The notes: generated by a model from the letters alone, not told the origin. A DNA stretch of 64,000 nucleotides from Candidatus Bathyarchaeota archaeon (GCA_963706285.1 CAVPLU010000010.1:96001-160000), one strand, 5' to 3'. Shown: positions 13,029-25,474, counted from the stretch's first letter. Numbers and translations: made by a program.

Positions 13029-13790
13029 TTACATCTTGAGGTTCCATTCGTCTGTACCATACTTCTCTCTCACTAGGGCAGAGACCATGCCCGACTCCTC
13101 TTCCGTTACAGTGCCCTGAACCAAATGTGCTCTGAAGGTTCTTGTGAATGCGTCCTTCAGAGCTTCTTGGACCTCCTCGACTGAGGTCTCTTTGCCCAAT
13201 TCCGCTTTCACGGAGGTTACTGGAAGACGCGTGCTTTGAACGAATCTACGCGGTGTCGGAGGCTGTGCCCATCGCAGGATCCTCCACATCGTCTCAAGGT
13301 GCGTACTAACCAAAATGGAGCCATGATAAAATGTCGAGCCCCAACGAATTGCGCCTGCCCCTCCTGAGATCTTCTTTCCTTGAACAACTATTGTGTTGAT
13401 GGGAATTCGGTTCGATTCTATGCCTAAGATCTCAAGGCATGCGATCGTGCAGTCGAGGCTCAATTTGAATATGCTCTGGTGGAGGTCTGTGCTTGATAGT
13501 GGGAGCTTTCGAGTACAGATCGAGTAGTTGAGATTTCCAAGGTCATGATAGACCGCTCCGCCTCCGGTGAAACGTCTCACAACTTCGACGCCTAATTCCT
13601 TGCAAGCTTCGAGTTGCAGCTCCGCCGCAGCCGATTGGTTCTCACCGATGACCGCAGCATTACGATTTCTCCACAAACGAAGGGTTGGAGGTGACTTCCC
13701 TTCCCCAACACTTCTGGCTATGGATTCTTCAAGGGCAAGGTTCGAAGGGGCATCGGGATATTCTAGGTCGAGAAGTCGCCAGTCGCCCAT
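13029..13790 (-). CDS. lplA: Lipoate-protein ligase A family
   Basis: VVRRFTGGGAVYHDLGNLNYS, KKISG, HGSIL. Confidence 0.9.
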   Translation of the reverse strand: MGDWRLLDLEYPDAPSNLALEESIARSVGEGKSPPTLRLWRNRNAAVIGENQSAAAELQLEACKELGVEVVRRFTGGGAVYHDLGNLNYSICTRKLPLSSTDLHQSIFKLSLDCTIACLEILGIESNRIPINTIVVQGKKISGGAGAIRWGSTFYHGSILVSTHLETMWRILRWAQPPTPRRFVQSTRLPVTSVKAELGKETSVEEVQEALKDAFTRTFRAHLVQGTVTEEESGMVSALVREKYGTDEWNLKM

Positions 13791-19147: not shown

Positions 19148-20755
19148 TTAGCTCAGAATGTTCTCAATTGCGTCCATTTCGCAATCTTCTGGCAGGGGTA
19201 TTCCAGTTGCCTTAGCGGCTCTTTCGGTCAATGAGATCAGGTCGTTCCTATGCAGGAATTTGAGATTCCATTTTCTGGATCCTGCCATAAGCTGCTGGAG
19301 TCCGACTCCAATGCGGCCTTTCATGTAACCGTAGAGTCCAATGGCCTCTAAAGGTAGCTTGTCAAAGCGATTTCCTAGCAAAGACTGTAGCTCGCTTGTG
19401 GAAGCAAGAAAGGTCTTTGGAGACATTCCGTAGCGTTCAACGAATGCCTTGGGTAGCTGGCCGTTCTCTGCGAGTCGGGCGAAGTGCGCTGTCTTGGTCA
19501 CGGCGGTAATGGGAGACCTTCCTAGTAGGGCTGCCTTCACGTAGGGCCCCTTGCCGAAATTACTCATTGCGATTGACTTGTAGATTTGCGTCTCTTCGAT
19601 GAAGCCGCCAGCAATTACAATGTCGGGCACGTACTTGCTCTTCTTTCTTAGGATCTCGGCGCATTTCAAGACTTGAGCTTCGAGGTATACTGTGGGGGTC
19701 CCCATTTCGTCCATCATTGGAACAGGGCTCATGCCGGTTCCTCCGCCAGCTCCGTCGAATGTTACATAGTTGAGTTTTGCCTCTGAAGCCAGTTTCATTG
19801 TGAGAGCAACAGCGCTCGGTCTGTAAGCGCCAGTCTTCAGACTCACGCGCTTGACGCCTTGGCTTCTGAGACTATCTATGTCTTCAAGGAAACCCTTCTC
19901 ACTAAGCATGCCAACTCTGCTATGTCTCTCAAAAGACTGAATCATGCCATCTTTGAAAGCTTCCTTGACCCCGGGCTGTTCAGGGTCCGGGATGACTAAA
20001 TATCCCGCTTCCTTCAGTCGGAGTGCTCTCTGATGATCTGTAATTCGGACTTCTCCACCAATCGCCTTGGCTCCCTGTCCCCATTTTCTCTCGATTGTGT
20101 CTACCTCTAGCTTCGAAGCTGCGTAGGTATCCACTCCAAGTCTCTGGTCTTCGACGTTTGTTTGAACTGCAATGTCCCCGTGCTTTCCATCCCAGAACTC
20201 TCTGAATAAGTCGACCCTGCGTTTGAGCTCTTGGGAGTAAGTTATCTTGCCATGCTCCATCTTTGACTGCGGGTCCATCGCGCAGACGTTCTCGCCTACT
20301 GTTATGGTGATTCCCGAAATGGCTGCGCCAATGGCAAGACCTTCCCAGTAGGTTCTTGCTATGTCGGTTGAACCGTATGCCCCGATCAAGAGCGGCATCT
20401 TCAGAGGGACGCCGCCAACGTTGCTCTCGATGTTGACGTTCGGGAATAGTGCCAGATCCGAGTCGCTTTCTATACCCTCAGCTCCAAGAAGCTCCGAATG
20501 GATGTTGAAGTGCGACCAGTCCAGCCGGAAATCTTTGAGCGCTCCAGCCGTGCTATGCCCAAATTTCATGGGATCCGGATATAGCGCTTCTCTTCCTCTG
20601 AGTGCAGCCAAACCAATTTCGCACAAGATTGGACAATCATCAGTGCAGATTGGACACATGCCGCTTGTACAGCTTCTATCCTGGACTCTCGTCAAGGTTC
20701 CAGTCGTAGATTTTCCGTTCAGATAGGAAGAGTTCCTTGCAACTTCACCGTTCAT
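19148..20755 (-). CDS. Archaeal FMN-binding glutamate synthase family protein (GltB2-like)
   Basis: CPICTDDCPILCEIG Fe-S motif, KWGQGAKAIGGE, LKTGAY, DGAGGGTGMSP. Confidence 0.88.
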   Translation of the reverse strand: MNGEVARNSSYLNGKSTTGTLTRVQDRSCTSGMCPICTDDCPILCEIGLAALRGREALYPDPMKFGHSTAGALKDFRLDWSHFNIHSELLGAEGIESDSDLALFPNVNIESNVGGVPLKMPLLIGAYGSTDIARTYWEGLAIGAAISGITITVGENVCAMDPQSKMEHGKITYSQELKRRVDLFREFWDGKHGDIAVQTNVEDQRLGVDTYAASKLEVDTIERKWGQGAKAIGGEVRITDHQRALRLKEAGYLVIPDPEQPGVKEAFKDGMIQSFERHSRVGMLSEKGFLEDIDSLRSQGVKRVSLKTGAYRPSAVALTMKLASEAKLNYVTFDGAGGGTGMSPVPMMDEMGTPTVYLEAQVLKCAEILRKKSKYVPDIVIAGGFIEETQIYKSIAMSNFGKGPYVKAALLGRSPITAVTKTAHFARLAENGQLPKAFVERYGMSPKTFLASTSELQSLLGNRFDKLPLEAIGLYGYMKGRIGVGLQQLMAGSRKWNLKFLHRNDLISLTERAAKATGIPLPEDCEMDAIENILS

Positions 20756-20800
20756 GGAGTATCCTCTCTACTTATCAAATGCCAAGAAACGCGGAAGCCC

Positions 20801-20917
20801 TCAGGTTTCCAGCTTCAGAATGTCGTAGAATTCGCAGCATCTCTCGCTGATGTGGAGATGGTGCCGCAAGTCGTCCGGTTTGCCGAAGATGGCTCTGCAG
20901 ACTCTGCATTGTGGCAT
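20801..20917 (-). CDS. 38-aa C2H2/C2HC-type zinc-finger microprotein (not in ORF track)
   Basis: MPQCRVCRAIFGKPDDLRHHLHISERCCEFYDILKLET matches C-x2-C-x3-F-x5-L-x2-H; lies between the TATA box and the glutamate synthase gene. Confidence 0.7.
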   Translation of the reverse strand: MPQCRVCRAIFGKPDDLRHHLHISERCCEFYDILKLET

Positions 20918-20952
20918 TTCTTTTCAGGGCTCGCAGTACGCCTTTCAGCCAG

Positions 20953-20974
20953 TATTAAGACGGGTGTGCACTTT
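20953..20974 (-). promoter_or_regulatory. Nitrogen-cluster promoter/operator copy 1 (AAAGTGCACACCCGTCTTAATA on minus strand)
   Basis: 21/22 identical to 24255-24276; ends in TATA-like CTTAATA. Confidence 0.75.
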
Positions 20975-21106
20975 CGTCCTTGCTCTTATGTCAATTATGC
21001 CGCATTGGACCGGAAAACTTGTAAATCTGGCTAGATGTGGAGTCGTCGAATGTCCGATTTGCTGGAAGGCTCTGTAGGATGTGAGGTTAATTGCTGATCG
21101 GTGCGG

Positions 21107-22468
21107 CTACAATTTCTTGATGTATCTCTGCACTTCCCAAGGGGTAACCTGTGTCCTGTACAAGTCCCATTCGCGATGTTTCTCTTCAAGGAAGTTCTCA
21201 TACAGGGTCTCACCAAGCGCCTCCCTAACGAGTTGACTTTTCTCGATCTCCTCCAACGCTTCGGAAAGAGATTCGGGTAGTGAAACTATGCCGCGTTCTT
21301 TGCGTTCCTCATACGTCAACTTGTAGACGTTCAATTCAGTAGGTTTAGGCGGTTCGATTTTCTTCTGTATGCCGTCGAGGCCGCTCAGGCAAAGCACTGC
21401 GAACTGGAGGTACGGGTTGCCCGCAGGATCAGGACATCTGATCTCACAGCGTGCGGCACTCTTTCTCTTGCCGAAGTTGGGCACGCGGATGAGTGGAGAT
21501 CTGTTTCTAAGCGCCCACGCAACGTAGACAGGCGCCTCAAAGCCTGGGACTAGTCGTTTGTATGAGTTTGGCCAAGAGGCGAGGATTCCGCACATTTCTC
21601 GCCCGTGAGCTAGTTGGCCGCCGATGAAGTTCAACGCTGTTTTGGACAGGTATCCCGTGCTTTCATTATCCTCAAAGAATACGTTCTTTGATCCGTCAGC
21701 GCTCCACAGGCTCTGGTGAACATGCATGCCTGATCCGTTCACACCAGGGAAAGGCTTGGGCATGTACGTGGCGAGGTAGCCGTTTCTCGCTGCAACAGCC
21801 TTGGTAACCATCTTCATAGTGGCGGTGCGGTCAGCAGTCACGAGGGCCTCACCATACTTGAAGTCTATCTCATTCTGACCAAGCGCAACCTCGTGGTGAG
21901 CAACTTCAATCTCGATTCCAAATGCTTCTGCAGTGTCCGCGATCTCTCTTCGGAGATCTTCCGTGAGGTCTCCCGGGTGCAGGTCAAAGTAGCCGCCCAT
22001 ATCGATCGGTGTAGGTGCGAGGCTGTCCTGTTCCTTCACGAGGAAGAACTCCAGTTCTGGTGCACAGTTGAATGTGAACCCTGCTTGGCTGCATTTCTGT
22101 AAGGCTCTTTCAAGCGCGAAACGAGGATCCGCCTCGAACCGTTCGTTATTGGGCGTGTAGATGTCGCAGATTAGCCGGCATGACGCCTTTTCTTCGGGAC
22201 GCCACGGAATAATCGAAAAAGTGCTTGGGTCCGGATAGGCTACAAGGTCGGATTCCTCAATTGGTCTGTATCCAGTGACGGATGAGCCGTCGAATGACTG
22301 GCCGTTCTCGAAGATCGATTCTATTTCTTTCGTTCGCACAGAGTAGCTCTTCAATATGCCATCTATGTCTATGAACTGGAGTCGAGCGAACCTAATTTCC
22401 CTGTCACGTATTATCTTGGAGACTTTGGCTACGTCTTCACGCCACTTCGAATCCTTGAAGTTCTTCAT
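21107..22468 (-). CDS. glnA: Glutamine synthetase type I
   Basis: FDGSS, APELEFF, HHEVALGQNEI, MPKPFPGVNGSGMHVHQS, NSYKRLVPGFEAP. Confidence 0.96.
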   Translation of the reverse strand: MKNFKDSKWREDVAKVSKIIRDREIRFARLQFIDIDGILKSYSVRTKEIESIFENGQSFDGSSVTGYRPIEESDLVAYPDPSTFSIIPWRPEEKASCRLICDIYTPNNERFEADPRFALERALQKCSQAGFTFNCAPELEFFLVKEQDSLAPTPIDMGGYFDLHPGDLTEDLRREIADTAEAFGIEIEVAHHEVALGQNEIDFKYGEALVTADRTATMKMVTKAVAARNGYLATYMPKPFPGVNGSGMHVHQSLWSADGSKNVFFEDNESTGYLSKTALNFIGGQLAHGREMCGILASWPNSYKRLVPGFEAPVYVAWALRNRSPLIRVPNFGKRKSAARCEIRCPDPAGNPYLQFAVLCLSGLDGIQKKIEPPKPTELNVYKLTYEERKERGIVSLPESLSEALEEIEKSQLVREALGETLYENFLEEKHREWDLYRTQVTPWEVQRYIKKL

Positions 22469-22519
22469 TGAAAGCCGTCCTCAGTTGAATCCTGATATGC
22501 AGAGACTCTGTCCCAGCGC

Positions 22520-22543
22520 TACTTAACACATATCTACACATAT
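22520..22543 (-). promoter_or_regulatory. Nitrogen-cluster promoter/operator copy 2 (ATATGTGTAGATATGTGTTAAGTA on minus strand)
   Basis: Fits consensus GTGYASAYMYGTSTTAA with the same spacing to TTAA as copies 1 and 3. Confidence 0.55.
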
Positions 22544-22973
22544 GCGACCCATCCCATGTCAGCATTGCTGCTAGAGATCAACCGGACGCACATTGCGGCC
22601 ACGACGGGACTGAACAACGCACCGATGTGCTGGACGCGCGACAATGGTTTCTGTGATGGGACTTGTAGAACATGGAATGCAGAAATCTTTGGGGACTGTT
22701 TATCGAATCGTTCCGAAAATGCCTACACAGTTCCGAGGCATAGACGAAGTTCAATCGTTTTGAGGGTCCTCGGAATTTTGAATAATCTCTAGGGGAACGT
22801 TGAATCTACTTGTGTTCAAGAAATTGATGGAAATCTCTTCTGTGCAGTCTTCATACATCGCTGGTTATTCAACGGAACCTGACAAAGCTGCAAGTTCTGG
22901 CACCTAGATCTGATTGCATGAGAATCAAATCTGAATTGTCTGCCTGAGTTCATTATCGTTCACATGGTACACG

Positions 22974-24203
22974 TCATGCATAGGCTTCTTCGCCGTGTTG
23001 ACTGATATCGAGACCATCGTGTTCTTCTTGTGGACTGACTCTCACAGGAGTGAAGATGTCGATCGCTCTGAGAATTACGTATGACCCGACAAAGCCGAAT
23101 ACTGCGACGACGGCTACGCCAAGCGCCTGAATAAGCACCAGGTTAGGATTTCCAAATAGTAACCCATTGGGTCCAGTTGGGTTGACGAGGGTGGATGCAA
23201 ACAGACCTGTGGCTATTGTTCCCCATATGCCACCCATGCCGTGGCACGCAAAGACGTCTAGTGCGTCGTCCAATGTGGTTCTAGCTCTCCAACTCGCCAC
23301 ATAGTTGCACAGCAATCCGGCTACCAGTCCGATGATTATTGCAGGCATTGTGCCTACGTAGCCTGAAGCAGGCGTTATCGCTACGAGGCCACACACGGCG
23401 CCGATCGATATGCCTACTGCTGATGGCTTGCCTTTCCTAATCCAATCTACTATCATCCAACTTACAGCTGCCGCAGCTGCAGCAAGATTCGTGACAACCA
23501 AAGCGTTCACTGCCAAAACATTGGCTGCAAGTGCGCTTCCGGCGTTGAATCCAAACCAGCCAAACCATAGGATAGATGCTCCAAGAATCACGAAGGGGAT
23601 GTTGTTAGGGCTGATGCCATTCTCTTTCCAAGCTAGGCCTTTTCTTCTGCCGATTACGAGTGCGCCTGCGAGCGCAGAGACGGCGGCAGCGGTGTGGACC
23701 ACTAATCCTCCTGCGAAGTCAATTACGCCAATGGTCCTTAGCCATCCGCCAATGGCCCAGTTCCAGTGTGCTATTGGGGCGTAGATGAAGGTCGTCCAGA
23801 GAACTATGTAGATGAGCAGTGCTTTGAAGCGAATTCTCTCAGCAAAAGCTCCGATAATTAGCGCTGGTGTTATAGCTGCAAATTTTAGCTGAAATGCAAA
23901 ATAGAGAAGTTCTGGAATAGTATCTGAATAGTTGGGGTTCGGTGTCAATCCAACATTGTTCAGTCCAAGATCCGAAAGATCTCCAATAATGCCATTCATT
24001 GTCGGTCCGAGTGCGAGACTGTACCCCCACAAGGCCCAAATCAAACTAATGACAGCGAAGATCGCGAGACATTGAACTATGGTCGATATGAGGTTCTTGC
24101 GTCTGACCAAACCACCATAGAAGAATCCGAGTGCCGGAGTCATTATCATGACAAGACTAGTTGCTGCGATAACCCATGCCATGTCCCCAGAGTCCAACAA
24201 CAC
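22974..24203 (-). CDS. amt: Ammonium transporter
   Basis: MTPALGFFYGG, FQLKFAAIT, DFAGGLVVH, LWFGWFGFNAGS, DDALDVFACHG. Confidence 0.96.
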   Translation of the reverse strand: MLLDSGDMAWVIAATSLVMIMTPALGFFYGGLVRRKNLISTIVQCLAIFAVISLIWALWGYSLALGPTMNGIIGDLSDLGLNNVGLTPNPNYSDTIPELLYFAFQLKFAAITPALIIGAFAERIRFKALLIYIVLWTTFIYAPIAHWNWAIGGWLRTIGVIDFAGGLVVHTAAAVSALAGALVIGRRKGLAWKENGISPNNIPFVILGASILWFGWFGFNAGSALAANVLAVNALVVTNLAAAAAAVSWMIVDWIRKGKPSAVGISIGAVCGLVAITPASGYVGTMPAIIIGLVAGLLCNYVASWRARTTLDDALDVFACHGMGGIWGTIATGLFASTLVNPTGPNGLLFGNPNLVLIQALGVAVVAVFGFVGSYVILRAIDIFTPVRVSPQEEHDGLDISQHGEEAYA

Positions 24204-24254
24204 ACTTCCCTCTCCTGAACTTGACCTAGAATTTTCAGGGGGCTCTTCTCTCGA

Positions 24255-24276
24255 TATTAAGACAGGTGTGCACTTT
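24255..24276 (-). promoter_or_regulatory. Nitrogen-cluster promoter/operator copy 3 (AAAGTGCACACCTGTCTTAATA on minus strand)
   Basis: Near-identical to 20953-20974; in the amt/regulator divergent intergenic region. Confidence 0.75.
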
Positions 24277-24352
24277 TCCGAGTGGTTCTGTATCGGCTTT
24301 GTCAGGTTGAGACTGGAAATACCTAAATGTCTCGCAGTCAGAAGGAGTTTCT

Positions 24353-25474
24353 ATGGCCGATTTGCTAGATGATCGGACCAATCTCTTGCTACTTCAGGAA
24401 ATCTGTGCCGGGAATGGCCTAGAAGTGAACCTGACGCAGTTGTCGAAACGCCTGAAGAGGCACAGAAACACGATCAGAGAGAGAGTCAGGAGCTTACTTT
24501 CTCACAAGGTAATTGACCGGCCAGTTGTTCCGTTTCTGGGGTTATTCAGAGAACGTCCCTTGCTGGTTGTGGTCTACGCTGACCTTCCTGAAGACGCCAG
24601 AGTTTCCAAGTGGATCAAGGAAGACATGAACATTTTCGGCGCCTATAGAGTCAGAGAAGGCGACTACAACATGATGCTCTTCGAATTTCACAGTGATGTC
24701 TGGAGTTATCATGTTTGGAGAGATTCTCTTGTCCCTGATGGTAAGATACCTGCAAGACGAGGAAGAACCGCATCTAACACTCTGTACCTTTCAAACAGAC
24801 TCGTAACGAAATATCAGCCCAACACTGCGATTCAGCTCATTGAAGAACAGTTTGCGAAACCACGCCGTGTAACCATCAATGATTACGTACTGGACGAACT
24901 TGCGCTGGACGTGATGAGGTGTCTTCTAGAGGGGAAGGGAATCAAGGTGAACGAGAATTTTCTCTCCAAGAAGATCGGTGTTCACAGATCCACTATCAGG
25001 AGGAGGATCTTGAAAATGGAGGAAGAGGGGATCATCCATCCTCCTCTTTGCCGATTCCCCCTTTTCTTCACGCCATCAAACTTCCTCCTGGTCTTCTCGA
25101 TGCTTGAAGTAAAGGAGCCTCGAAAGTTCATGAATGACGTGACAAACGATCCACATGTTAGCCTGGCCTACAACATAAGCGAAGGCAGATACAATATGCT
25201 CCTCTTCGAATCGCACGTGGACATGGAGAGCTATCTGCGGTGGGAAAGCAGCTACGAGACCAAGTACCCGGAATGTTTCGGCTCGATTAAGAACAACTAT
25301 CTTTCGCCGAGGATGACTATTTCGATCGACCAACAGAAAGTGTCGCTTGGCATAATTGCTGAGAAATTGAAAGCGCTAGGAGCTAAGTCGACTCACGCTC
25401 GCAAGAGAGATGATACGTCTCGAGTCTCAAGAGGCTCCTCAAGACCGCCTTTGCCATCGTCTGCCTTCCGATAA
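24353..25474 (+). CDS. Internally duplicated Lrp/AsnC-like regulator (2x wHTH+RAM-like)
   Basis: Repeat halves VNLTQLSKRLKRHRNTIRERV...AYRVREGDYNMMLFE and VNENFLSKKIGVHRSTIRRRI...AYNISEGRYNMLLFE. Confidence 0.7.
   Translation: MADLLDDRTNLLLLQEICAGNGLEVNLTQLSKRLKRHRNTIRERVRSLLSHKVIDRPVVPFLGLFRERPLLVVVYADLPEDARVSKWIKEDMNIFGAYRVREGDYNMMLFEFHSDVWSYHVWRDSLVPDGKIPARRGRTASNTLYLSNRLVTKYQPNTAIQLIEEQFAKPRRVTINDYVLDELALDVMRCLLEGKGIKVNENFLSKKIGVHRSTIRRRILKMEEEGIIHPPLCRFPLFFTPSNFLLVFSMLEVKEPRKFMNDVTNDPHVSLAYNISEGRYNMLLFESHVDMESYLRWESSYETKYPECFGSIKNNYLSPRMTISIDQQKVSLGIIAEKLKALGAKSTHARKRDDTSRVSRGSSRPPLPSSAFR

Follow-up and report, generated by a model that had tools for sequence, protein, structure and literature searches.

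A box shared by ammonium-assimilation promoters and a divergent tandem Lrp-like protein suggest a nitrogen regulon in an uncultured Bathyarchaeia archaeon

A box of about 17-22 bp was found to be common to four promoters of an uncultured Bathyarchaeia archaeon (genome of 2.13 Mb, 89% complete): those of amt, of glnA, of an operon formed by a microprotein gene and a GltS-like gene, and of gltB-gltD. The first three are located in the window, the stretch of 64,000 nucleotides that was analysed, next to a divergent gene for a 373-aa protein composed of two Lrp-like units; the fourth lies on contig C12. We consider it probable that these promoters constitute a nitrogen regulon in which the box is the predicted operator of the tandem protein; repression by its ligand-bound form is only slightly preferred over activation. 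The locus would represent a compact, complete and testable circuit, with a 22-bp predicted operator, four target promoters (those of amt for uptake, of the glutamine synthetase gene and of two operons for glutamate synthase), and a candidate regulator amenable to expression and assay with no need for a culture of the organism.

Gene content of the locus and the shared box

The genes given in the initial annotation (amt, glnA, a GltS-family gene, the microprotein gene and the divergent 373-aa gene) were all found again (Table 1). The amt gene had no adjoining glnK and was divergent from the regulator gene, whose neighbours in the window were amt and A-type ATPase genes. Gene calls and Pfam profiles revealed no second regulator gene in the cluster. 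An ORF in the gap between glnA and amt (22556-22792, plus strand), with no Pfam matches and 37% agreement, with gaps, in the related genome G001, was treated as non-coding.

Table 1. Features of the nitrogen-assimilation locus, in window coordinates
Feature	Coordinates	Strand	Remarks
Tandem Lrp-like protein of 373 aa, candidate regulator of the box	24353..25474	+	2 x wHTH + RAM-like
Box 3, AAAGTGCACACCTGTCTTAATA	24255..24276	-	abuts the amt TATA; start codon of the regulator 77 nt downstream
amt, ammonium transporter	22974..24203	-	PF00909 408 bits; TIGR00836 453 bits
Box 2, weaker variant, core GTGTAGATATGTGTTAA	22521..22542	-	glnA start codon 55 nt downstream
glnA, type I glutamine synthetase	21107..22468	-	TIGR00653 513 bits
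Box 1, AAAGTGCACACCCGTCTTAATA	20953..20974	-	microprotein start codon 36 nt downstream
Cys/His zinc-finger-like microprotein of 38 aa, C-x2-C-x12-H-x6-C	20801..20917	-	ORF; first gene of operon with the GltS-like gene
FMN-binding GltS-family protein of 535 aa	19148..20755	-	PF01645 31.4 bits

Boxes 1 and 3 were identical at 21 of 22 positions on the minus strand, as first observed, and the glnA copy did fit the degenerate pattern GTGYASAYMYGTSTTAA, which matched at 22523-22539 and only twice more in the window (20955-20971 and 24257-24273), always on the minus strand. In 100 shuffles the mean number of matches was 0.02, and none of the shuffles reached three. Box 2 shared 16 of 17 positions with a site from the related genome G005, and the similarity between the surroundings of the amt and microprotein boxes stopped at the edges of the 22-mer. 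The TATA-like TTAA that had been seen to abut the motif was also borne out, the 3' end of the box resembling a TATA box; TTAATA was enriched upstream of genes, being present in 19 of the 1389 upstream regions of the genome against 1.9 expected.

A matrix built from the three sites of the initial annotation retrieved the gltBD promoter as its best non-training match in the genome (25.0 bits, the next match having 15.9), thereby locating a fourth box, outside the window, upstream of a full-length glutamate synthase operon. A relatives-only matrix, based on six sites that all came from other genomes, was then scanned over about 4.3 million positions. Its four best matches were amt (31.1 bits), gltBD (30.8), microprotein/GltS-like (29.1) and glnA (16.7), the last with a marginal margin over the best background match (15.1). 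Since its four promoters occupied the top four ranks genome-wide with a matrix derived from relatives alone, the box is not a generic BRE/TATA element, a reading that the initial annotation had put forward as damaging to the proposal; the genome contains four sites, all of them before ammonium-assimilation operons. No box was detected by the matrix scan upstream of the gdh of this genome (contig C3).

Distribution of the box and of the regulator gene

The exact pattern GTGYASAYNYGYSTTAA was detected in three of 41 related genomes, G000 (four sites), G001 (four) and G005 (one), which are exactly the three regulator-bearing genomes of the genus. The other 38 genomes had no site, and the reversed control pattern gave none. 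The pattern was composed post hoc, with three of the G001 and G005 sites already in view, so that what it newly shows is confined to another two sites in G001 and to the 38 genomes with no match. In G003, G007 and G009, none of which has the regulator, the glnA orthologues (84% identity) all lacked the box (0/3), and none of the ten amt loci of other genomes reached 13 bits.

A variant of the box preceded the regulator gene by at most 110 nt in all seven loci of the genome collection with a regulator at least 72% identical, as well as in the window, irrespective of whether the divergent gene encoded Amt, the microprotein, a stand-alone RAM protein or a Zn-ribbon protein. Box variants were retained even in genomes whose regulators were just 72-76% identical. 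Because the genomes compared are close kin in one genus and the genes form a variable island, present in only some genomes of that genus, this co-occurrence represents few independent events. The more distant regulator-bearing genomes had no exact match to GTGYASAYNYGYSTTAA, and the amt loci of regulator-bearing G025 and G036 had no box of at least 13 bits, indicating that the regulon differs between lineages.

Homologues of the regulator were recovered at 79 loci in Bathyarchaeia, Nitrososphaeria, Asgard archaea and Thermoplasmata. A gdh gene was near the homologue at 20 of these loci (at 19 of them within 1 kb, upstream and divergent), and GOGAT-type genes were found at 15, so that 32/79 had one or the other; on the family tree, adjacency to gdh required at least five separate origins. 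The anticipated synteny with nitrogen genes therefore held for gdh and glutamate synthase, but not for amt (1/79) or glnA (0/79). Upstream of 76 homologues, an unbiased k-mer search found only AT-rich promoter words enriched when a coding background was used; against an intergenic background, ATGGTA/ATGGCA-type words occurred in 26/76 homologue upstream regions compared with 19/322, a statistic inflated by kinship. No single family-wide operator could be defined from the upstream words of these 76 homologues, the boxes varying by clade.

These distributions bear on a different reading, in which the box is a true nitrogen operator that serves another transcription factor encoded elsewhere, and the tandem protein controls only itself or has some other role. 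The linkage of the homologues to gdh and GOGAT instead of amt and glnA is compatible with it, as are the boxless amt loci of G025 and G036, binding by the tandem protein being a prediction. We nevertheless judge it unlikely, given that no genome of the genus has the box without the regulator gene, that it accompanies this gene in all the close loci whatever lies on the other side, and that the cluster offers no other regulator.

Architecture and fold of the tandem protein

The presence of two tandem wHTH+RAM-like units in a single chain, proposed from the sequence, was corroborated. The two halves aligned with 31% identity over 167 residues (E 3e-20), Pfam HTH matches were obtained in both (residues 24-55 and 180-229), and in the AlphaFold2 model (pLDDT 91.4, pTM 0.84), analysed with VIA-align, a wHTH plus a RAM domain (beta-alpha-beta-beta-alpha-beta) occurred twice per chain. 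Aligned with the single-unit regulators FL11, NMB0573 and a halophilic Lrp, the units gave Z values of 9.3-9.7 and rmsd of 2.1-2.4 A over 142-148 residues at about 18% identity, with Z 9.5 for Lrp/FL11 and rmsd 2.1 A for the DNA-bound form of FL11 (2e1c); FL11 was also matched at E 0.006 when the family profile was compared with the PDB. Among the curated sequence profiles, PF01037 (AsnC_trans_reg, RAM) gave nothing on the protein at E <= 0.01, PF13404 reached 18.7 bits, below its cut-off of 27, and all the NCBIfam Lrp-type models stayed far under their cut-offs.

Residues at the starts of the recognition helices (H37, R38 and T40 in the first, R212 and R218 in the second) were invariant or nearly so, and conserved across phyla. 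All 73 aligned members of the family (that of the window and 72 drawn from the 79 loci) were 330-400 aa long. As for split, half-size forms of the regulator, 33 shorter matches were considered and rejected, most of them being on short contigs and looking cut off. A literature search yielded no account of an Lrp transcription factor built as a tandem or as a single chain, the architecture of two Lrp units in one chain having been known previously only from an enzyme.

That enzyme is NirDL. Among solved structures, a module of two Lrp-like units is known only from NirDL and AhbAB (4ch7, 4czc and 4czd for the two together), and only in NirDL are the units fused into one chain. NirDL was the top match of the tandem protein in both Foldseek (E 9e-10, TM 0.48) and VIA-align (4czc/4ch7, Z 13.7/13.6 over 239-240 residues), so the concern that the protein might model as a siroheme decarboxylase was formally touched, although what is shared is the architecture only: identity was 8-10% and rmsd 4.6-4.8 A, and single Lrp regulators fitted each unit better. 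The decarboxylase-type profile PF17805 (AsnC_trans_reg2) was detected neither in the protein (E <= 0.01) nor in the whole genome, whereas 3/14 control genomes were positive. Among the annotated neighbour clusters of the homologues (gdh, GOGAT, hydrogenase/complex-I-like and others), the single pointer towards tetrapyrroles was a URO-D-family gene at five Asgard loci; the genomic context is nitrogen assimilation, whereas NirDL and AhbAB are enzymes of heme and heme d1 synthesis. With such neighbours, and with recognition helices conserved across phyla, it is very improbable that the 373-aa protein belongs with enzymes or scaffolds such as NirDL/AhbAB, proteins of Lrp-like kind in which DNA binding has been lost.

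Glutamate synthase genes and the microprotein

The gene first called glutamate synthase does encode an FMN-binding protein of the GltS family, but a distant relative, the canonical and complete gltB/gltD being the genes on contig C12 that carry the same box upstream. The PF01645 match of the 535-aa protein exceeded the cut-off (20.4 bits) and covered profile positions 187-296 only. It was 24% identical over 254 aa to the FMN subunit of a split GOGAT, with the GQGAK and DG..GGTG motifs aligned, was assigned to the Atlas cluster 'FMN-binding glutamate synthase family' (score 0.98), and had no match among PDB sequences at E <= 0.01. Its sequence relates it, at some distance, to the FMN subunit of archaeal GltB. 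The GATase and GXGXG parts were missing from the protein, and no close partner genes were found in the genome; in G001, GATase/GXGXG partner genes adjoin amt.

The microprotein had no Pfam or NCBIfam match, and its residues C4, C7, F11, L17, H20 and C27 were invariant in 4/4 orthologues. The leader of gltBD aligned with the microprotein gene at the DNA level, which implies that promoter and gene were copied together, and part of the similarity between the two promoters corresponds to this duplicated promoter-plus-gene cassette. The possibility that gltB is preceded by another intact microprotein gene was rejected, as the leader had DNA similarity only and no intact Cys/His frame. Such a copied cassette, in an island confined to some genomes of the genus, could suggest that the box is just the trace of a recent promoter duplication, with no common regulator, yet this is the least probable of the readings weighed here, because the amt and microprotein promoters cease to resemble each other at the 22-mer, the gltBD box still scored 30.8 bits while the microprotein frame beside it had decayed, and box variants persist beside the most diverged of the close regulators.

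Absence of PII and NrpR

Neither PII (PF00543) nor the NrpR domain (PF01995) was detected in the whole genome, at 89% completeness, so the absence initially seen in the cluster extends genome-wide. It is an order-wide trait, however, and not tied to the regulator: PII was found in 4/41 related genomes and NrpR over cut-off in 0/41. As 13 of the 18 Amt-bearing relatives had neither PII nor the tandem regulator, the latter is not a general stand-in for PII. The initial proposal was supported in part, through the specificity of the box, its co-occurrence with the regulator in the genus, the two-unit single chain and the linkage to nitrogen genes, but not in the parts that concerned linkage to amt and glnA and the replacement of PII.

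Proposed mechanism

In the regulon that we favour, the box would end, on its 3' side, in the TATA box itself (TTAATA / TTAAGA). Its 5' part, AAAGTGYASAYMYGY, is the specific one, in which two TG steps spaced 8 bp apart are invariant; this part would span the BRE and the DNA that adjoins it upstream. The divergent 373-aa protein most likely has the box as its operator, and its two non-identical winged helices may read two unequal half-sites. We infer that the two RAM-like domains sense a nitrogen signal of the amino-acid type, glutamine or glutamate being the likeliest, and that the ligand-bound protein, placed on the BRE-proximal box, would block TFB/TBP, leaving the operons repressed when nitrogen is plentiful. 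The opposite sign, activation through recruitment of TBP/TFB, is nearly as likely. All 20 public sequencing runs listed as a possible source of expression evidence were DNA metagenomes, with no RNA run among them. The protein might also regulate its own promoter, probably leaderless and about 45 bp away, from the same site.

Comparison with known systems and wider meaning

To our knowledge, the transcriptional control of nitrogen assimilation in archaea has been worked out only in methanogens (NrpR, PII) and, partly, in haloarchaea and Sulfolobus. For Bathyarchaeia, Asgard archaea and most Thermoplasmata, which abound in wetlands and sediments and have for the most part not been cultured, a literature search found nothing comparable, nor any work on nitrogen regulation in Bathyarchaeia. 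The fusion of two Lrp units would show how the feast/famine fold can read asymmetric DNA sites, and such a result would hold for several archaeal phyla, given that the link to gdh and GOGAT extends across the family.

A broader possibility, which we consider less likely than not, is that the tandem Lrp family is the main regulator of the nitrogen/glutamate node in Bathyarchaeia, Nitrososphaeria, Asgard archaea and Thermoplasmata. If so, it would fill the place of NrpR, GlnR or NtcA in lineages that mostly have no PII for Amt. The fusion of two diverged units would allow a single molecule to recognise an operator that is asymmetric and adjoins the core promoter, an asymmetric RAM-RAM pocket would sense glutamine, glutamate or 2-oxoglutarate, and the co-transcribed zinc-finger microprotein would add a further, post-translational layer on glutamate synthase.

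In methanogens, NrpR acts together with GlnK/PII-AmtB, and one operator is common to amt, glnA and other nitrogen-assimilation promoters. The same logic of a single box shared by such promoters is seen here, although the protein family is unrelated to NrpR and the position of the box is at the TATA/BRE and upstream of it.

Sa-Lrp of Sulfolobus acidocaldarius is described as glutamine-responsive and as binding the promoters of ammonia-assimilation genes (PMC3584215). Sa-Lrp and the glutamine-binding ST1022/Grp of S. tokodaii (2efq) have the wHTH+RAM fold of the tandem protein. Their glutamine effector, and binding to ammonia-assimilation promoters in a non-euryarchaeal host, also correspond to what is predicted for the tandem protein. 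They differ in having one unit per chain, in forming dimers and octamers, and in acting globally on loose AT-rich sites, whereas the tandem protein has two diverged, fused units and an asymmetric, GC-containing box that is restricted to four promoters. In Haloferax mediterranei an Lrp-family gene lies beside glnA; its product is a canonical single-unit tetramer, and its expression reportedly showed no response to the nitrogen sources that were tried (PMC8229911).

The best structural match for each unit was FL11 (PH1519), a feast/famine regulator of Pyrococcus that binds as a symmetric homodimer to a palindrome, in contrast with the two differing reading heads of the tandem protein and its non-palindromic box. 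The FL11 site has 13 bp with two 5-bp halves. Its geometry is similar to that of the two TG steps of the box. The Pyrococcus regulators have stand-alone RAM partners, such as DM1, and at the related locus L019 the box precedes a stand-alone RAM protein (PF01037, 50.8 bits).

A shared element at four nitrogen promoters

The initial annotation had placed a recurrent motif upstream of the nitrogen genes of this cluster, and this was borne out: its degenerate pattern matched three times in the window against 0.02 matches expected from shuffles, and two minus-strand 22-mers (20953-20974 and 24255-24276) differed at a single position. This element of about 17-22 bp (the box) lies at the amt, glnA and microprotein/GltS-like promoters. 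Its setting against a TATA-like TTAA also held up, since TTAATA was about ten-fold enriched in upstream regions of the genome (19/1389 observed, 1.9 expected), which makes the 3' end of the box a plausible TATA box. Inspection of the upstream regions of other nitrogen genes in this genome (2.13 Mb, 21 contigs, 89% complete, 7.5% contamination; the window lies on contig C10) revealed a fourth copy, AAAGTGTAGACATGCCTTAAGA, on contig C12 before gltB-gltD, coding for a full-length GltB (1513 aa; GATase_2, central, FMN and GXGXG domains) and a 479-aa GltD; none was found upstream of gdh on contig C3.

Genes of the nitrogen cluster
Feature	Position	Strand or orientation
FMN-type GltS-family gene, 535 aa	19148-20755	minus
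Cys/His microprotein gene, 38 aa	20801-20917	minus
glnA	21107-22468	minus
amt	22974-24203	minus
Candidate regulator gene (REG), 373 aa	24353-25474	divergent from amt

Two non-circular matrix scans were performed over the genome, one trained on the three window sites and the other on six sites from other genomes only. With the former, the C12 site ranked first among non-training positions (25.0 bits; next 15.9), and with the latter the top four positions were those of amt (31.1 bits), gltBD (30.8), microprotein/GltS-like (29.1) and glnA (16.7), against a top background score of 15.1. The glnA site, the weakest of the four, was identical at 16/17 positions to the microprotein-promoter site of a congeneric genome (G005). 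On these tests the box is not a generic BRE/TATA element of the kind found at many promoters.

Co-occurrence of the box and REG

The REG gene was found in 13/41 related genomes and, within the genus, only in that of the window, G001 and G005. The exact pattern GTGYASAYNYGYSTTAA was restricted to the same three genomes (four, four and one sites), leaving 38/41 without it, and its reversed-pattern control yielded no matches over the 41; as three of the G001/G005 sites were known when the pattern was written, the new evidence consists of the two additional G001 sites and the 38 genomes without a match. REG-bearing genomes outside the genus had no exact match, indicating that the box has diverged there. 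In all three REG-free genomes compared (G003, G007 and G009) the glnA orthologue was 84% identical and its upstream region unrelated, and no site of at least 13 bits was found at ten amt loci of other genomes or at the remaining glnA loci. All seven genome-collection loci with a REG at least 72% identical carried a box variant at most 110 nt upstream of the REG gene, whichever gene was divergent. Besides amt and the microprotein gene, this position was occupied by a gene for a RAM-domain protein standing alone (L019 7551-7850, minus; PF01037, 50.8 bits) or for a protein of 121-125 aa that carries two CxxC pairs but matches nothing in Pfam (L021 7461-7838 and L040 7470-7835, both minus). REG was 72-74% identical at the last three loci, whose divergent products are possible partners or targets of REG.

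On a G001 contig (C340; L116 1498-3016) the box 3' of amt precedes split glutamate synthase (GOGAT) genes, encoding an amidotransferase of class II (312 aa) and a GXGXG protein, where the window holds glnA; no close homologues of these two proteins were found in the window's genome. The amt-REG junction of G001 was assembled twice (C317 and C340) with slightly different boxes, one contig having only the first 28 REG codons; the bin (6% contamination) probably combines two strains.

Structure and proposed role of REG

By sequence, REG is internally duplicated: the two halves share 31% identity across 167 residues (E = 3e-20). Pfam returned only generic HTH families (residues 24-55 and 180-229), with neither a RAM nor a siroheme-decarboxylase profile found, and the Lrp-type NCBIfam matches were all sub-threshold. 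The two tandem wHTH+RAM-like units initially proposed were both recovered with confidence by AlphaFold2 from 73 family members (pLDDT 91.4, pTM 0.84); the model shows two repeats of a wHTH joined to a beta-alpha-beta-beta-alpha-beta domain, with additional strands and a helix in each.

The possibility that REG models as a siroheme decarboxylase was upheld only in that its best whole-chain structural match was the fused enzyme NirDL (Foldseek E = 9e-10; VIA-align Z 13.7, 240 residues, rmsd 4.8 A), which ranks first because it is the only solved chain with two units; yet identity was 8%, and PF17805, the siroheme-decarboxylase type profile, had no match in the whole genome while being detected in three control genomes. 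Single units aligned with true Lrp/FFRP regulators, including DNA-bound FL11, at Z 9.3-9.7 (142-148 residues, rmsd 2.1-2.4 A, ~18% identity). The recognition-helix starts (H37/R38/T40 and R212/R218) were invariant or nearly so among the 73 members, down to 37% identity, which is consistent with a conserved DNA-reading role.

REG is read as most likely an Lrp-type, amino-acid-responsive regulator of the four box-bearing nitrogen operons. Its two different heads would read the asymmetric operator against the BRE/TATA of these operons, and the same box stands ~45 bp upstream of REG's own TATA-like element. Repression when nitrogen is plentiful is favoured, with activation almost as likely. Precedents are Sa-Lrp, a glutamine-responsive protein that binds promoters of ammonia-assimilation genes (PMC3584215), and the Haloferax Lrp gene adjoining glnA (PMC8229911). 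No description of a tandem Lrp transcription factor was found in the literature searched.

Distribution and neighbours of the REG family

At least 227 proteins of the collection belong to the family, and those with a name are called 'Lrp/AsnC family regulator' or 'hypothetical'. One-per-species genomes gave 94 matching stretches, of which 79 loci were kept. Close homologues carry the source label Bathyarchaeia; overall, the loci were labelled Bathyarchaeia, Nitrososphaeria, Brockarchaeota, Thor-/Hod-/Prometh-/Atabeyarchaeia, Thermoplasmata, Methanomassiliicoccales or DPANN, some of these labels probably being binning errors. The same probably applies to L088 and L093 (archaeal REG plus Mbh-like genes), filed under the bacterial MAGs Krumholzibacteriaceae and Desulfaltia, since both nest among Bathyarchaeia on the tree.

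Neighbours were surveyed by crude ORF calls, clustering and annotation of representatives from part of the neighbour clusters. Counts are lower bounds because many flanks are short: gdh at 20/79 loci (in 19 of them as a divergent upstream neighbour <1 kb away), genes of GOGAT type (coding for the FMN subunit, an amidotransferase, a GXGXG protein or the 535-aa type) at 15/79, either at 32/79, and 46/79 when GltD-like genes are included. The expected synteny with nitrogen genes was found for gdh and GOGAT, but amt adjoined REG at 1/79 loci and glnA at 0/79; the link to these two is a peculiarity of this genus. In a 73-member tree (7/79 loci were left out, their ORF being cut or outside 330-400 aa), gdh adjacency required at least five changes forced by well-supported branches; the association with the glutamate node is thus old and recurrent.

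Within the L069-L094 group (e.g. L073 and L084), one clade lies beside Mbh/complex-I-like membrane hydrogenase genes, one of which codes for a GltD-like subunit with a fused 30-kDa complex-I domain, and another adjoins a NiFe-hydrogenase with a NuoF-GltD fusion; these neighbours may tie the family to redox supply for glutamate synthesis.

No single family-wide operator could be defined across the upstream regions of REG homologues, and other clades had conserved TATA-adjacent elements of their own. ATATCATRATTA abutted the TATA box in 9/76 REG upstream regions, at most 200 nt 5' of the gene (L022, L023, L025, L027, L028, L030, L031, L049 and L077), with the palindrome CATAATTATG or close variants inside it in several loci; this is a sister clade (REG 55-60% identical), often beside a split GOGAT operon. 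Between gdh and REG in L065 and L082, upstream of gdh, a perfect 7+3+7 inverted repeat (ATGTGCA-TTG-TGCACAT, containing GTGCAC) looks like a classical Lrp-type palindrome on a distant branch of the family.

Absence of PII and NrpR

Neither PII nor NrpR was found in the genome (89% complete); among the 41 relatives PII occurred in four, NrpR above cut-off in none and Amt in 18. The absence first noted for the cluster therefore extends genome-wide and is a lineage trait. The 18 Amt-bearing genomes had PII in two, REG in four and neither in 13, and G025 carried amt-glnK together with REG; 'Amt without GlnK' is thus a real condition, but one that REG does not explain.

GltS-like protein, microprotein and flanking features

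The 535-aa protein matched the GltS FMN domain (31 bits), was 24% identical to a split-GOGAT FMN subunit and fell in the Atlas cluster 'FMN-binding glutamate synthase family'; it is a distant GltS FMN-domain relative, and no close partner subunits were found in the genome. The microprotein gene lies 5' of the 535-aa gene in the window, G001 and L020, whereas four homologues of the latter that are more distant have no copy upstream; the microprotein kept the pattern C-x2-C-x12-H-x6-C in 4/4 orthologues. On C12 (~13400-13610; L096 9396-9612, minus), the 170 nt of leader that separate the fourth box from the gltB start aligned at the DNA level with the window microprotein gene, but the start codon and Cys/His frame were lost. 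A promoter-plus-microprotein cassette was thus duplicated to the position upstream of gltB, where the small gene degenerated but the box remained intact.

Genes D, B and A of the A-type ATPase follow 3' of REG, and a GltD-like gene (C10 160069-161301; 40% identical to a GltD-type subunit along 414 aa) is located ~70 nt beyond the window end. A non-coding stretch just 3' of amt (22820-23000) was 70% identical over 181 nt to G001 C340 (L116 1081-1259), best conserved around GATCTGATTGYATGAGAATCAAATC, and could be a terminator or 3' UTR element.
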